A stretch of 25,336 nt of DNA from a virus (Duplodnaviria > Heunggongvirae > Uroviricota > Caudoviricetes). The stretch lies in IMG/VR virus record IMGVR_UViG_2706794669_000003. One strand, given 5' to 3'. A program made the translations under genes and the position numbers. Below, piece by piece: positions 5,623-25,336 of the stretch; position 1 is the stretch's first letter, and each line of letters opens with the position of its first letter. The notes under the pieces were generated by a model. That model was not told the DNA's origin. It did no database searches and saw only the letters and a list, made by a program, of their open reading frames with translations.

Positions 5623-6922
5623 TCTCCCGCATATTGCCAGCATGGCTTTTAATGAGCCGCTGATGCTTGAACCCGCCTATGCGCGGGTTTTCTTTTGTGC
5701 GCTTGCAGGCCAGCTTGGGATCAGCTGCCTGACGGATGCAGTATCCGGCGACAGCCTGACTGCCGGAGAGGCACCCGCGGCGCTGGCGTTATCCGGTGAT
5801 GATGACGGACCACGACAGGCCCGCAGTTATCAGGTAATGAACGGCATCGCCGTGCTGCCGGTGTCCGGCACGCTGGTCAGCCGGACGCGGGCGCTGCAGC
5901 CGTACTCGGGGATGACCGGTTACAACGGCATTATCGCCCGTCTGCAACAGGCTGCCAGCGACCCGATGGTGGACGGCATTCTGCTCGATATGGACACACC
6001 GGGCGGAATGGTGGCGGGAGCATTTGACTGCGCTGACATCATCGCCCGTGTGCGTGACATAAAGCCGGTATGGGCGCTGGCCAATGACATGAACTGCAGC
6101 GCAGGTCAGCTGCTTGCCAGTGCCGCCTCCCGGCGTCTGGTCACGCAGACCGCCCGGACAGGCTCCATCGGCGTCATGATGGCTCACAGTAATTACGGCG
6201 CTGCACTGGAGAAACAGGGCGTGGAAATCACGCTGATTTACAGCGGCAGCCATAAGGTGGATGGCAACCCCTACAGCCATCTACCGGATGATGTCCGGGA
6301 AACATTGCAGTCCCGGATGGATGCAACCCGCCGGATGTTTGCACAGAAGGTGTCGGCATATACCGGCCTGTCCGTGCAGGCTGTGCTGGATACCGAGGCT
6401 GCAGTGTACAGCGGTCAGGAGGCCATTGATGCCGGACTGGCTGATGAACTTGTTAACAGTACCGATGCGATCACCGTCATGCGTGATGCACTGGATGCAC
6501 GTAAATCCCGTCTCTCAGGAGGGCGAATGACCAAAGAGACTCAATCAACAACTGTTTCAGCCACTGCTTCGCAGGCTGACGTTACTGGCGTGGTGCAAGC
6601 GACGGAGGGCGAGAACGCCAGCGCGGCGCAGCCGGACGTGAACGCGCAGATCACCGCAGCGGTTGCGGCAGAAAACAGTCGCATTATGGGGATCCTCAAC
6701 TGTGAGGAGGCTCACGGACGCGAAGAACAGGCACGCGTGCTGGCCGAAACCCCCGGTATGACCGTGGAAACGGCCCGCCGTATTCTGGCCGCAGCACCAC
6801 AGAGTGCACAGACGCGCAGTGACACTGCGCTGGATCGTCTGATGCAGGGGGCACCGGCACCGCTGGCTGCAGGTAACCCGGCATCTGATGCCGTTAACGA
6901 TTTGCTGAACACACCAGTGTAA
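5603..6922 (+). CDS. C: prohead protease / head maturation protein (ClpP/SppA-like)
   Basis: GTG at 5603 preceded by aggaggagaa. Gives 439 aa starting (M)TAELRNLPHIASMAF, the lambda gpC length, and overlaps the B 3' end by 20 nt. The track ORF starts further upstream (5468) inside B. Confidence 0.9.
6317..6922 (+). CDS. Nu3: capsid scaffolding protein, nested in-frame within the 3' third of C
   Basis: In-frame ATG at 6317 (MDATRRMFAQKVSAYTGL...) to the C stop gives 201 aa, matching the lambda Nu3 arrangement. The nested start is assigned by analogy. Confidence 0.75.
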   Translation: MDATRRMFAQKVSAYTGLSVQAVLDTEAAVYSGQEAIDAGLADELVNSTDAITVMRDALDARKSRLSGGRMTKETQSTTVSATASQADVTGVVQATEGENASAAQPDVNAQITAAVAAENSRIMGILNCEEAHGREEQARVLAETPGMTVETARRILAAAPQSAQTRSDTALDRLMQGAPAPLAAGNPASDAVNDLLNTPV

Positions 6923-6931
6923 GGGATGTTT

Positions 6932-7264
6932 ATGACGAGCAAAGAAACCTTTACCCATTACCAGCCGCTGGGCAATAGTGACCCGGCTCATACCGCAACC
7001 GCGCCCGGCGGATTGAGTGCGAAAGCGCCTGCAATGACCCCGCTGATGCTGGACACCTCCACCCGTAAGCTGGTTGCGTGGGATGGCACCACCGACGGTG
7101 CTGCCGTTGGCATTCTTGCGGTTGCTGCTGACCAGACCAGCACCACACTGACGTTCTACAAGTCCGGCACGTTCCGTTATGAGGATGTGCTCTGGCCGGA
7201 GGCTGCCAGCGACGAGACGAAAAAACGGACCGTGTTTGCCGGAACGGCAATCAGCATCGTTTAA
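6932..7264 (+). CDS. D: head decoration protein
   Basis: 110 aa from the second ATG ([27 protein letters not shown]...). The track ORF starts 2 codons earlier at 6926. Length and sequence match lambda gpD. Confidence 0.93.
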
Positions 7265-20828: not shown

Positions 20829-20839
20829 GTGGGGTGAAT

Positions 20840-23800
20840 ATGGCAGTAAAGATTTCAGGTGTACTGAAAGACGGCACAGGAAAACCGGTACAGAACTGCA
20901 CAATCCAGCTGAAAGCAAAACGTAACAGCACCACGGTGGTGGTGAACACGCTGGCCTCAGAAAATCCGGATGAAGCCGGGCGTTACAGCATGGACGTTGA
21001 GTACGGTCAGTACAGCGTTATTCTGTTGGTGGAAGGATTCCCGCCGTCACATGCCGGGACCATCACCGTGTATGAAGATTCCCGACCCGGTACGCTGAAT
21101 GATTTTCTCGGTGCCATGACGGAGGATGATGCCCGTCCGGAGGCACTGCGCCGTTTTGAGCTGATGGTGGAAGAGGTGGCGCGTAACGCGTCCGCGGTGG
21201 CACAGAACACGGCAGCCGCGAAGAAATCAGCCAGCGATGCCAGCACATCAGCCCGTGAGGCGGCAACCCATGCGACTGATGCTGCAGATTCAGCACGTGC
21301 AGCCAGCACGTCAGCCGGACAGGCCGCTTCGTCGGCTCAGTCAGCGTCTTCCAGCGCAGGAACGGCATCAACAAAGGCCACTGAAGCCTCAAAAAGTGCT
21401 GCCGCTGCAGAGTCCTCAAAAAGCGCGGCGGCTACCAGTGCCGGTGCGGCGAAAACGTTAGAAACGAATGCGGCAGCGTCACAACAATCAGCAGCCACTT
21501 CTGCATCCACCGCGACCACGAAAGCGTCAGAAGCTGCCACCTCAGCCCGGGATGCGTCGGCTTCAAAAGAGGCGGCAAAATCATCAGAAACGAACGCATC
21601 ATCAAGCGCCAGTAGCGCAGCTTCCTCGGCGACGGCGGCTGCAAATTCTGCGAAGGCGGCCAAAACGTCCGAGACGAACGCCAGGTCTTCTGAAACGGCA
21701 GCGGGACAGAGTGCCTCAGCTGCGGCAGGCTCAAAAACAGCGGCTGCGTCGTCTGCCAGCGCCGCGTCAACAAGTGCCGGGCAGGCCTCAGCCAGTGCCA
21801 CCGCCGCCGGAAAATCGGCAGAAAGCGCCGCATCATCCGCTTCAACAGCCACAACGAAGGCTGGCGAAGCCACTGAGCAGGCCACGGCAGCAGCGAGGTC
21901 AGCTTCCGCAGCGAAGACATCCGAAACGAACGCGAAAGCGTCGGAAACCCGTGCAGAATCCTCAAAAACGGCTGCCGCATCGTCCGCCAGTTCGGCGGCG
22001 TCATCGGCATCATCGGCGTCTGCTTCAAAAGATGAGGCGACCAGACAGGCGTCAGCAGCGAAGGGCAGCGCCACGACGGCATCCACGAAGGCGACAGAGG
22101 CTGCTGGTAGTGCGACGGCAGCAGCTCAGAGCAAAAGTACGGCGGAATCTGCAGCAACGCGCGCTGAGACAGCGGCAAAACGGGCAGAGGATATTGCATC
22201 CGCCGTGGCGCTTGAGGATGCGAGCACGACGAAAAAGGGGATAGTACAGCTCAGTAGTGCGACTAACAGCACTTCCGAGTCACTGGCGGCAACACCAAAA
22301 GCCGTTAAGGCCGCGTATGACCTGGCTAACGGGAAATACACCGCACAGGATGCAACGACAGCACAGAAAGGGATAATCCAGCTAAGCAGCGCGACCAACA
22401 GCACGTCTGAAACGCTGGCGGCAACGCCAAAGGCAGTAAAAGCAGCCAATGACAATGCTGAGAAACGTCTGCAGAAAGATCAGAACGGTGCGGATATCCC
22501 TGGCAAAGACACCTTTACGAAAAATATTGGTGCCTGCCGTGCCTTCGGTGGGTCAGTAAGCACAACAACAGGAAACTGGACGACTGCACAGTTTATCGAG
22601 TGGCTGGATTCTCAGGGAGCATTTAACCATCCATACTGGATGTGCAAGGGTTCCTGGTCTTATGGCAATAATAAAATCATTACTGATACTGGCTGCGGTA
22701 ATATTCATCTCGCCGGAGCTGTCATTGAAGTAATGGGGATAAAGTCAGCGATGACGATCCGCATTACCACTCCGACCACATCCAGCGGTGGCGGAACAAC
22801 CAACGCCCAGTTTACCTATATTAATCACGGAACAGATTATTCACCTGGCTGGCGAAGGGACTATAACTCCAGAAATAAGCCAACGGCATCAGAGATCGGG
22901 GCGCTACCGTCAGGTGGAACAGCAGTATCATCAGTTAATCTGGCTTCAAAAGGTCGGGTAGCCGCGCTGACAGACAATACGCAGGGGGCAGCAGGTCTTG
23001 AGTTATACGAGGTGTATAACAACGGATATCCAACAGCGTATGGAAATATCATTCACCTGAAAGGGATGACAGCCGTTGGCGAAGGTGAGTTACTCATCGG
23101 CTGGAGTGGTACAAGCGGTGCTCATGCTCCGGCATTTATTCGTTCACGACGGGATACGACCGACGCAAACTGGTCGCCGTGGGCGCAGCTTTACACCTCG
23201 GCTCATCCTCCTGCAGAGTTTTATCCAGTCGGTGCACCAATCCCGTGGCCATCAGATACCGTTCCGTCTGGTTATGCCCTGATGCAGGGGCAGACTTTTG
23301 ACAAATCTGCTTACCCGAAACTTGCAGCCGCTTATCCGTCAGGCGTGATCCCTGATATGCGTGGCTGGACGATTAAGGGCAAGCCCGCCAGTGGTCGTGC
23401 CGTATTGTCTCAGGAACAGGATGGCATTAAATCGCACACCCACAGCGCCAGCGCATCCAGTACGGATTTGGGGACGAAAACCACATCGTCGTTTGATTAC
23501 GGCACTAAATCCACGAATAACACCGGGGCGCATACGCACAGTCTGAGCGGCTCTACAAGTTCAGCTGGGGCCCACCAACATAGTCAGACTGGGCCCAGAA
23601 CGAATAGCGGGAGTCAACCTACTGGAATGTTTCCGGCAGGGAGTACTCAAGTTAGCGGGACTAATCAGGTTGGTATCAGTGGCTCATTAACCAGTGGCAC
23701 CTCCCAATGGGTAGGTAAATCATCTTCAGAAGGAAACCATACACACTCACTGTCCGGCACAGCAGCATCTGCGGGTGCACACGCGCATACTGTCGGTATT

Positions 23801-23923
23801 GGTGCTCATACGCACTCTGTTGCGATTGGTTCACATGGACACACCATCACCGTTAACGCTGCTGGTAACGCGGAAAACACCGTCAAAAACATCGCATTTA
23901 ACTATATTGTGAGGCTCGCATAA
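20840..23923 (+). CDS. stf: side tail fibre protein, enlarged and mosaic
   Basis: ATG at 20840 ([26 protein letters not shown]..., the lambda Stf N-terminus as I recall it). The track ORF starts at GTG 20834 and is 1029 aa. Long Ala/Ser/Thr-rich tract, fibre repeats, a tail-collar-like segment ([29 protein letters not shown]) and C-terminal His-x-His repeats. Stop overlaps the tfa start. Confidence 0.92.
21170..22234 (+). repeat. low-complexity Ala/Ser/Thr-rich degenerate repeat tract within stf
   Basis: About 350 codons dominated by A/S/T/K/E with recurring KTSETNA-like units. Open ORFs appear in most other frames across this stretch, a composition artefact. Confidence 0.7.
22235..22453 (+). 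repeat. two copies of a 29-aa phage tail fibre repeat, 132 nt apart
   Basis: [27 protein letters not shown] at 22235-22321 and [27 protein letters not shown] at 22367-22453. Nearly identical protein, diverged nucleotide sequence. Confidence 0.75.
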
Positions 23924-24504
23924 TGGCATTCAGAATGAGTGAACAAGCACGGACCATAAAAATTTATAACCTGCTGGCCGGAACTAATGAATTTATTGGT
24001 GAAGGTGACGCATATATTCCGCCTCATACAGGTCTGCCTGCAAACAGTACCGATATTGCACCGCCAGATATTCCGGCTGGTTTCGTGGCTGTTTTCAACA
24101 GTGATGAGTCATCGTGGCATCTCGTTGAAGATCATCGGGGTAAAACGGTTTATGACGTGGCTTCCGGCGACGCGTTATTTATTTCTGAACTCGGCTCATT
24201 ACCGGAAAATGTCACCTGGTTATCCCCGGAAGGGGAGTTTCAGAAGTGGAACGGCACAGCCTGGGTGAAGGATACGGAAGCAGAAAAACTGTTCCGGATC
24301 CGGGAGGCGGAAGAAACAAAAAACAGCCTGATGCAGGTAGCCAGTGAGCATATAGCGCCGCTTCAGGATGCTGTGGATCTGGAGATCGCAACGGAGAAAG
24401 AAACCTTGTTGCTGGAAGCTTGGAAAAAGTATCGGGTGTTGCTGAACCGTGTTGATACATCAACTGCACCGGATATTGAATGGCCAGTAGCACCTATAGG
24501 GTAA
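23923..24504 (+). CDS. tfa: tail fibre assembly protein (chaperone)
   Basis: 193 aa [39 protein letters not shown]..., matching lambda Tfa as I recall it. TAATG overlap with the stf stop. Confidence 0.95.
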
Positions 24505-24587
24505 ATTCGTAATGATTACCTAAATACGTTATTCTTTTGTTAAAAAAGTGATTTTGCTATAGGTAGGGAGTATGTTCTTGGATTAAG

Positions 24588-24620
24588 AATAAAAAATCGC
24601 CATGAAAGAGCTTCATGGCG
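24588..24620 (-). terminator. rho-independent terminator oriented for leftward (minus-strand) transcription
   Basis: 9-bp stem CGCCATGAA/TTCATGGCG (24598-24606 and 24612-24620) with a 5-nt loop. The A-run on the plus strand (aataaaaaat, 24588-24597) becomes a U-tract 3' of the hairpin on the minus strand. No U-tract follows on the plus strand. Confidence 0.6.
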
Positions 24621-24759
24621 AGTACATAAACGTACAAAATGTGATGAAAGTAGAGTGGCGTAAGCCACTATATTAAGATATGACAATAGCGAAGAAAAGT
24701 AAATAACATTTTATGGACGTTTAATTGTTAATTATAAAAACTAGAGTGCCCGATATTGT

Positions 24760-24861
24760 TTATCTTGCTTTAAAATAATGTACTCAAACCAAATTTTTGA
24801 GCTAAAAGCTCAAATAATATAAATGCAATAATAATGTTTAATAAGACAATTATCTTGCTTT
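24760..24861. repeat. 12-bp perfect direct repeat TTATCTTGCTTT (24760-24771 and 24850-24861) in the AT-rich region
   Basis: Exact 12-mer present twice, 90 bp apart, in a region of roughly 30% GC. Function unknown. Confidence 0.5.
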
Positions 24862-25253
24862 GTATTTTCATTTCGGAATACTGTTAAGTAACTTTGATGA
24901 CCCTAACAATAGATCGGAATTTTCTTAGAGTCAATGGTCACTGTTTTTGCTTGCAAAGCAAATGTTTTGGTGGTTATAAGTCGTCTTAATATAGTCACGC
25001 ATGCAACTTGTTCCATGCGGAGATTAAAGATTGGAATATAACGCGAAGATGGAATTAAATTACATTTGCAATAATTAATTTATTATTACTCAATAATTAC
25101 CGATATTATTATTGTAAATTAATCATTAGAATGCAAAAAGAAATGTAACGGCAAAATAAGAGGACGATAGCTGAGAAAAAAGCGTGCTTTCCCAATCTGG
25201 GGCAAATCACGTCTGAATGACACCTGAAAACAGGTGGTAGCCTCAAGAAGGCT

Positions 25254-25336
25254 GGTGATGCTGCCAACTTACTGATTTAGTGTATGATGGTGTTTTTGAG
25301 GTGCTCCAGTGGCTTCTGTTTCTATCAGCTGTCCCT
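25254..25336 (+). mobile_element. IS1 insertion sequence, left end (IRL), continuing beyond the window
   Basis: GGTGATGCTGCCAACTTACTGATTTAGTGTATGATGGTGTTTTTGAGGTGCTCCAGTGGCTTCTGTTTCTATCAGCTGTCCCT matches the IS1 left terminal inverted repeat and the start of insA as I recall them. GC content rises abruptly here relative to the flanking AT-rich DNA. Confidence 0.93.
25309..25336 (+). CDS. insA: IS1 InsA, 5' end only (truncated by window edge)
   Basis: GTG GCT TCT GTT TCT ATC AGC TGT CCC encodes (M)ASVSISCP, the InsA N-terminus. Confidence 0.85.

Follow-up and report, generated by a model that had tools for sequence, protein, structure and literature searches.

A lambdoid prophage b-region with a probable yncL-like small gene, a fossil serU attachment site and an IS1 junction

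Overview of the region between tfa and IS1

The DNA examined in this study (the window) is a stretch of 25,336 nucleotides (nt) from a virus of the Caudoviricetes (IMG/VR record IMGVR_UViG_2706794669_000003). The region under study comprises its positions 24505-25253, a length of 749 bp that extends from the stop codon of the tail fibre assembly gene tfa to the left end of the insertion sequence IS1 at 25254. Within it, a 33-codon open reading frame (ORF) was identified on the minus strand that appears to encode a small membrane protein related to YncL of Escherichia coli. A previous reading of this DNA from its letters alone (the sequence-only reading) had described an AT-rich island in the b-region position of a lambdoid prophage, limited by tfa (24504) and IS1 (25254) and lacking any ORF of 60 amino acids (aa) or more. 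This description was confirmed: the content of guanine and cytosine (GC) is 31.4% compared to 54.1% across the whole window, the longest ORF is one of 52 aa on the minus strand with its start within IS1, and the b-region position is supported by the gene order of relatives. Two features were missing from that reading, namely the 33-aa ORF (24871-24770) and a terminator on the same strand (24621-24588).

Local alignments, together with counts in 5426 complete E. coli genomes, divided the region into three pieces (Table 1). The AT-richness was found to be confined to positions 24505-25168, which hold the first two pieces (block A and a linker), with the GC content of the final 85 bp being 48%. 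The region is neither a featureless spacer nor decayed DNA, but a three-part mosaic with an overlooked small gene. We consider it probable that it represents the mosaic b-region of a lambdoid prophage, made up of three unrelated pieces that include a yncL-like moron, and cut by IS1.

Copies of all 749 bp, with identities of 98-99.5%, were present in 280 complete E. coli genomes as well as in the phages mEp332, PhiR70_1 and ev099. Sampled relative loci are referred to by L-numbers, with L001-L003 being uninterrupted copies, L010 the Qin prophage of E. coli K-12 and L012 its Rac prophage. In L001-L003, no gene is annotated in the 1505 bp after tfa; next comes a plus-strand gene for an AraC-family regulator, past which lie transposase remnants and either int/xis (phages) or the ybhB-bioA att-lambda site (prophages). 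From this gene order the stretch was concluded to be the b-region of an att-lambda lambdoid phage.

Table 1. Features of the region between tfa and IS1 and at its borders (window positions)
Feature	Positions	Strand	Basis
tfa, tail fibre assembly protein, 193 aa	23923-24504	+	ORF; relatives annotate it as tail fiber assembly protein
Block A, 578-bp AT-rich cassette (29.9% GC) with a minus-strand unit, probable moron	24505-25082	-	comparative genomics
Rho-independent terminator, 10-11 bp stem TCGCCATGAA(G)/(T)TTCATGGCGA, then TTTTTTATT	24588-24621	-	terminator scan
73-nt conservation island: terminator, 32-nt spacer, hairpin AGTGGC-UUAC-GCCACU	24597-24669	-	lineage divergence
Predicted unannotated 33-codon gene, YncL-like small membrane protein MKIQSKIIVLLNIIIAFILFELLAQKFGLSTLF	24770-24871	-	conservation and NCBIfam
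Candidate sigma-70 promoter TTGACT, 17-nt spacer, TATTGT	24906-24934	-	consensus scan
AT-rich linker, 86 bp, 24.4% GC	25083-25168	.	lies between block A (to L001 6578) and block B (from L001 6665)
Block B: 85 bp from the outer end of the phage arm of a fossil attR of serU type	25169-25253	+	contiguity in relatives
IS1 left end (IS1A type), transposase rightward	25254-25336	+	100% match to IS1A

A conserved 33-codon ORF on the minus strand

Conservation of block A was examined in the window, nine annotated loci and 46 IMG/VR contigs. These 56 copies represent 33 different haplotypes, with identities clustering at about 99, 95.5, 93.5, 91 and 78.6%. The 33-aa ORF was unbroken in every one of the 33 haplotypes, including those of 78.6% identity, while each of the remaining candidate small ORFs of block A was broken in five to 22 of them. 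Its variable columns were distributed over codon positions 1, 2 and 3 as 8:2:13. Comparison of the common lineage with the 78.6% lineage revealed 12 synonymous and seven non-synonymous differences, with proportions of 0.61 for synonymous (pS) and 0.088 for non-synonymous (pN) change and a pN/pS of 0.14. Neutral evolution was simulated 20000 times using block A's own substitution spectrum; the ORF survived in 18% of the runs, with none of the 20000 retaining it with as few amino-acid changes as observed. Furthermore, 12 insertion or deletion events were identified across the surrounding 536 nt and none inside the ORF. These patterns point to purifying selection on the 33-aa ORF.

This bears on the proposal that the region is decayed or junk DNA, or the remnant of a gene truncated by IS1 (the junction itself is described below). 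Such a view is in keeping with the lack of a long ORF, and the linker and the 85-bp fragment of the attR arm do appear to be non-functional leftovers. It is at odds with the selection on the small ORF and with the occurrence of the cassette in 15% of complete E. coli genomes. We regard it as barely credible for the region as a whole: decay, which the sequence-only reading had offered as one possibility, is wrong for the core. Junk is largely refuted for positions 24505-24940 and remains the best description of 25083-25253.

The ORFs of 35, 37, 31, 48 and 26 aa in block A, the last two on the minus strand, were rejected as genes, each being broken in five to 22 of the 33 haplotypes. The first two (35 aa on the plus strand and 37 aa on the minus strand) had been proposed by the sequence-only reading and are located where it had placed them, but are not conserved across the haplotypes. 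A similar outcome was obtained for a 12-bp direct repeat, TTATCTTGCTTT, at 24760-24771 and 24850-24861. The repeat is exact in the window, but matches at 11 of 12 positions in the 32 other haplotypes and is not a conserved element, due to a single nucleotide polymorphism private to the window that is also the I7/L7 difference in the 33-aa ORF.

Relationship of the predicted peptide to YncL

The sole NCBIfam match of the 33-aa peptide was to YncL (NF000537, E = 9.4e-6, 25.4 bits), and the peptide of the divergent lineage also matched this model (E = 3.7e-5, 23.5 bits); YncL of K-12 scores 68.6 bits. An ungapped alignment of the peptide to residues 1-28 of K-12 YncL (b4598, 31 aa, an inner-membrane stress protein) gave 11 identities (M1, S5, V9, L10, N12, A16, L19, F20, L22, F27 and G28), with mostly conservative replacements elsewhere, and a BLOSUM62 local score of 60. 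None of 20000 shuffles reached this score (mean 20.2, standard deviation 4.1, maximum 54), and 13 other small hydrophobic E. coli peptides scored 13-31. In both the peptide and YncL the most hydrophobic 19-residue Kyte-Doolittle window is formed by residues 7-25, a predicted transmembrane segment. The similarity is significant and exceeds that expected from hydrophobic composition alone, indicating homology to YncL. The 33-codon ORF was concluded to be a real, unannotated and prophage-borne paralogue of yncL.

The two genes differ in their setting. That of the peptide lies in a prophage cassette of 30% GC, whereas yncL is located between patD and ortT, and no DNA similarity was found between the block A cassette and the K-12 yncL locus, including its flanks. 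Furthermore, yncL possesses a Shine-Dalgarno sequence (AAGGTGG) that the peptide gene lacks, while the peptide gene is followed by a long conserved 3' untranslated region (UTR). Another comparison was made with YnfT and YnaM (37 aa), which are likewise small hydrophobic peptides encoded near the tail-fibre end of related prophages (Qin and Rac of K-12). They share no significant similarity with the peptide (score of 34 against 60 for YncL) and have other neighbours (ydfK/ynaE and pin). These K-12 prophages are without block A, and their 37-aa pair, encoded by ynfT (L010 2891-3004) and ynaM (L012 6294-6407), is identical.

No PGAP feature was present at the position of the ORF in any genome record examined. 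Among 15 billion proteins, the exact peptide was found in just two unnamed metagenome entries, and a phmmer search of 1.84 billion representatives recovered nothing beyond the cluster of the peptide itself and a 43-aa variant with a frameshift, in a database of a size at which YncL is unable to reach significance. Pfam, PHROGs and PADLOC gave no matches for the peptide, and a literature search on its sequence returned no papers.

Stress and stationary phase induce YncL, the production of which depolarises the membrane to a sublethal degree, condenses the nucleoid and causes a phage-shock response (PMC12542507). In vivo, the protein is also a substrate of the RseP protease (PMC10470546). Given these known effects of YncL, the likeliest role of the prophage peptide would be that of a lysogenic-conversion factor with an influence on membrane energetics or on stress state. 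More particular advantages, for instance in exclusion, tolerance or induction control, are speculation.

Transcription signals and a conserved 3' island

The 33-codon ORF is flanked on its own strand by a candidate promoter and a terminator (Table 1). The -35 hexamer and the spacing of the promoter are identical across all lineages, with the -10 hexamer reading TATCGT in the divergent one. The 3' UTR, of 150 nt, ends in the terminator near the tfa stop codon and folds with a z-score of -5.5. The stem of the terminator (24621-24597, with the T-run extending to 24588) is a perfect 10-nt inverted repeat (I4), and the scan found two terminators compared to 0.4 expected in shuffles.

The distal part of the 3' UTR forms an island of 73 nt (24597-24669) with a divergence of 5.5% between the common and 78%-identity lineages, compared to about 30% in both flanks. 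It consists of a hairpin, a 32-nt spacer (UCUACUUUCAUCACAUUUUGUACGUUUAUGUAC) and the terminator. The hairpin is one of two described by the sequence-only reading, at 24654-24669 (AGTGGC/GTAA/GCCACT) and 24946-24962 (TTTGCTT/GCA/AAGCAAA); both are present, but the latter is destroyed in the divergent lineage. Variable positions of the island lie mostly in loops, the spacer and the outermost stem pairs, position 24656 being in the stem interior and variable in one haplotype. At 24664, a G>A change keeps its pairing, as a G-U wobble, only in RNA of the minus strand. The conservation of the island could stem from an RNA element (a stabiliser, or a small RNA (sRNA) derived from the 3' UTR) or from a limited patch of recombination.

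These observations raise the possibility, in line with the small RNA locus named among the options of the sequence-only reading, that the product of the unit is an RNA, either a stand-alone or 3'UTR-derived sRNA of the Hfq type (24669-24597, minus strand) or the whole unit as a dual-function RNA. In its favour, the island is the most conserved part of the stretch, changes within it avoid the inner stem pairs for the most part and include the strand-specific wobble, and both the fold of the 3' UTR and the layout of hairpin, spacer and terminator are sRNA-like. Against it, Rfam searches of the window and an intact relative with E-values of up to 10 found no family in the region (MicC and Esr41 appeared at E of at least 1, which is chance level, and the tmRNA and plastid matches in L001 correspond to a serU fragment described below). 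No covariation was seen for the island because its stems barely vary, and a small recombination patch could mimic its conservation. An RNA product would also leave the pN/pS of 0.14 and the homology to YncL unexplained, so that it would at most add to the coding explanation. We therefore treat it as tentative and rather unlikely. A combined form, in which a dual-function moron provides both the mRNA for a YncL-like depolarising micro-protein and a 3' UTR that is processed to a trans-acting sRNA, is quite unlikely in our estimation.

A type I toxin-antitoxin system was also considered, in which the 33-aa peptide would be a toxin that depolarises the membrane and an antisense RNA would restrain it. 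The peptide is small, hydrophobic and predicted to be single-pass, its homologue YncL depolarises the membrane (PMC12542507), the weak ribosome-binding site and structured mRNA recall those of toxins, and a promoter-like site was found on the plus strand at 24680-24709. However, YncL is no known toxin of such a system and its effect is sublethal. A conserved plus-strand pair of promoter and terminator was not found, with the hairpin at 24796-24814 broken in L014 and no terminator identified on that strand. The unit also has no long folded 5' UTR, and neither PADLOC nor Pfam identified a toxin family. A toxin-antitoxin system is highly improbable on these grounds.

Separately, an inverted repeat of 11 bp on either side of the unit (24668-24678 and 24984-24994) was considered as the ends of a mobile element and was dropped, since about 0.3 such matches are expected by chance in AT-rich DNA of this length.

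Several points weigh against a protein-coding yncL-like gene within such a mosaic. The main weakness is that the 20 nt preceding the ATG (..CAGUAUUCCGAAAUG) hold no purine run of the Shine-Dalgarno type in any lineage. The promoter agrees with the consensus at nine of 12 positions, and such matches are no commoner than in shuffled sequence; the U-tract of the terminator is weaker in the divergent lineage. The NF000537 score of 25.4 bits lies below the curated cutoff of 35 bits, meaning that the peptide is not an equivalog of YncL. A frameshifted variant of 43 aa exists in one metagenome cluster, and the haplotype of L059 and L047 (24505-25050) is chimeric, grouping with the 78%-identity lineage up to about 24660 and with the 93% lineage to the right of this point; recombination of this kind among block A lineages complicates arguments from conservation. 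The family was found only in E. coli strains, with no occurrence among the species-representative genomes of GTDB, and its evolutionary depth is shallow: when these genomes were scanned with a terminator motif and, separately, with a back-translated motif of the peptide, a single chance match was all that came from outside E. coli strains. Lastly, the window ends inside IS1, and the sequence beyond is taken from relatives with the same junction.

The 43-aa variant (metagenome protein P0003) shows its frameshift past codon 26, near an A5 run as judged by inspection, and reads MKIQ...LLAQKIWFEYIILKQDKQYRAL. At least one copy of the small ORF thus seems to have been inactivated or altered.

Block A as a cassette following tfa

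Block A was identified in 831 of the 5426 complete E. coli genomes (15%), in every case beginning at a tfa stop codon, and in att-lambda, Qin-site and sit-adjacent prophages. At the Qin site (L005) it adjoins ydfJ with about 95.5% identity and no AraC gene is present, while beside the sit operon its identity is 93% in L014 and 78.6% in L013. In L005 and L013, remnants of the tfa 3' end in direct orientation lie on both sides of block A (L005 5584-5687 and 6346-6420; L013 3824-3982 and 4587-4686). On account of the remnant that follows it, block A was taken as a cassette bracketed by tfa ends, and this arrangement suggests that cargo cassettes may be exchanged through homologous recombination at these ends.

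Homology of tfa to tfaQ and tfaR of K-12 ends at L001 6001, which corresponds to window position 24505. In the Qin and Rac prophages of K-12 the position of block A is occupied by the pin invertase gene, with DNA homology stopping exactly at the tfa stop codon. Local alignments found no DNA similarity between block A and the regions following tfa in Qin, Rac and DLP12 of K-12.

With its strong terminator, conserved promoter matching the consensus, GC content of 30% against 54%, and absence from Qin and Rac of K-12, block A has the attributes of a moron. It resembles known lambdoid morons (such as lom and bor of lambda, and cargo genes of the tail-fibre end or b-region) in being a compact unit with a promoter-like site and an intrinsic terminator, in its position at a module boundary directly after tfa, in its aberrant GC content and in its variable presence among similar prophages. 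It differs from these in that its product is just 33 aa and has never been annotated, and in that remnants of the tfa 3' end bracket the cassette in two lineages. The tfaD-ybcY-tfaX-appY arrangement of DLP12 in K-12 is also comparable, as it has a cassette on the opposite strand after tfa, a tfa 3' remnant and a gene of the AraC family (YdeO/GadX/AppY-type) at the prophage end. However, its cassette is the methyltransferase pseudogene ybcY, which is not yncL-like, and it shares no DNA similarity with block A beyond tfa.

One Rfam observation concerns tfa itself. Its 3' part (24266-24464, plus strand) matched RF02111 'IS009' over its full length, with 218 bits against a gathering score of 117. 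The family, described as an 'RNA gene', is apparently modelled on tfa 3'-end sequence, which also occurs as remnants (tfaX and the flanks of block A).

A fossil serU attR

The linker that follows block A was found only in the lineage that bears the AraC-family gene. Beyond it, the final 85 bp of the region belong to block B, which in L001 spans positions 6665-7199. The same 535 bp occur at the right end of a serU-integrated prophage of E. coli 042 (L006), and phage SerU-LTIIb (KU052038) carries a shorter part of 456 bp (L001 6744-7199). Positions 6860-7199 of L001 are 97% identical to the K-12 chromosome, corresponding to the 3' 62 nt of serU (tRNA-Ser CGA) and 278 bp of downstream sequence, a host segment located at the native serU locus in 5423 of the 5426 complete genomes. 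As phage arm, tRNA core and host DNA are contiguous, block B was concluded to be the fossil attR of a serU-integrating ancestor; the junction of phage DNA with the 3' part of tRNA-Ser, followed by chromosome, was found in L001 and in true serU prophages.

The window itself keeps only 85 bp of the phage arm of this attR. These (25169-25253) are 96.5% identical to the DNA preceding the displaced serU 3' fragment in the attR of serU prophages (E. coli 042; SerU-LTIIb). The difference is that the window copy is a fossil within an att-lambda (bioA-ybhB) lineage, away from a chromosome junction, and that IS1 has taken the core and most of the arm.

The cultured att-lambda phages mEp332 and ev099 also carry the 62 nt of serU and 278 bp of core chromosome in their b-region. 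Such DNA presumably derives from a past aberrant excision or from recombination with a serU-integrated prophage. To the left of the serU core, a direct repeat, TTGATTTTTCG, was seen by eye in two copies about 55 bp apart (roughly L001 6780-6850) that are deleted in the window; these are candidate arm-type integrase sites.

The IS1 junction and the AraC-family regulator

The left inverted repeat of IS1 starts GGTGATGCTGCC at 25254, and the window stops 83 bp into the element. This exact junction is common to 79 complete genomes. In L004, which has the identical junction, IS1 stands in place of L001 6750-7299, a deletion of 550 bp. The sequence-only reading had suggested looking for a 9-bp target-site duplication, and none is present in relatives with this junction (the flanks in L004 being aagaaggct and cttattggc), due to the association of IS1 with the 550-bp deletion. 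The junction fits IS1 with an adjacent deletion and not a simple insertion. In one IMG/VR contig (L028 11616/11617) a further 191 bp are gone and 15 bp separate the end of IS1 from the ATG of the AraC-like gene, which suggests stepwise IS1-mediated deletions toward the regulator. Together, the linker, the attR fragment and the IS1 junction are ordinary prophage patchwork.

A gene with its 5' end cut off by IS1 had also been envisaged, on account of minus-strand frames that are open from the junction. In intact relatives, a 55-aa minus-strand ORF does lie over this point. It spans a recombination joint, is frameshifted in L007 and different in L009, and is not conserved among carriers of the segment, which argues against a truncated gene. 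Annotations as 'hypothetical protein' or a 55-aa 'capsid protein' at L003 5615-5782 (minus strand; ev099) and L007 3834-4001 (plus strand) look spurious.

The regulator gene beyond IS1 has YdeO as its best NCBIfam match, followed by GadX, and is a member of phrog_1450. The sequence-only reading had raised the loss of a cargo gene to IS1: a cargo gene does exist beyond the element, but it survives, unbroken and 206 bp past IS1, in L004 and its same-junction relatives. The region could then be non-coding regulatory DNA of this gene (a promoter or long leader), silenced by H-NS and disrupted by IS1. The plus-strand YdeO/GadX-like gene does follow tfa by 1505 bp in intact relatives, and H-NS typically binds DNA that is AT-rich, gained by horizontal transfer and located upstream of regulators of this kind, as has been reported for appY. 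However, the majority of the 831 genomes carry block A in Qin-site and sit-adjacent prophages, where the AraC gene is missing. The fossil attR with its 340 bp of serU-locus DNA lies between block A and the regulator gene, so that the two were joined secondarily. Furthermore, block A carries its conserved features on the strand opposite to the regulator gene, and relatives bearing IS1 lost 550 bp of intervening DNA yet kept the regulator gene. A regulatory role for the region, which the sequence-only reading had also put forward, is very unlikely.

Among neighbouring genes, the side tail fibre gene (20834-23923, 1029 aa) contains a long low-complexity stretch rich in Ala, Ser and Thr (21300-22300) with 60-66% GC, which gives rise to several long spurious ORFs in other frames and on the opposite strand.

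Proposed history and significance

Under the explanation favoured here, of a mosaic b-region with a yncL-like moron, the first piece (24505-25082) would be a self-contained moron lying opposite to the late operon, with a promoter-like site, a short AU-rich leader, the 33-codon gene, its 3' UTR and the terminator. By analogy with YncL, the peptide would insert into the inner membrane of the lysogen as a single-pass protein, and may then modulate membrane potential and stress physiology. The second piece would be the linker, and the third the distal phage arm of an old attR. The ancestral junction, with 340 bp of serU-locus DNA, would have entered the lineage from a serU-integrating ancestor, presumably through aberrant excision or recombination. 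Later, IS1 would have inserted in the attR arm and deleted 550 bp rightward, placing it 206 bp upstream of the YdeO/GadX-like gene as seen in same-junction relatives.

The region records phage history in the form of a fossil serU attR with captured host DNA, and of IS1 deletions that approach a regulator gene of the acid-stress type. For annotation, the outcome is the addition of one new small gene and the disregard of several spurious ORFs. If the dual-function moron outlined above were true, it would let the prophage tune the membrane energetics or the stress state of its host, with possible effects on superinfection exclusion, tolerance or induction control. Small membrane proteins systematically escape annotation, and the PGAP records examined were blank at this one throughout. 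Roughly one complete E. coli genome in seven nevertheless carries the cassette, as do the cultured phages mEp332, ev099 and PhiR70_1, and a mobile, prophage-borne paralogue of YncL would offer a test case for the part played by micro-proteins in lysogenic conversion by temperate phages.

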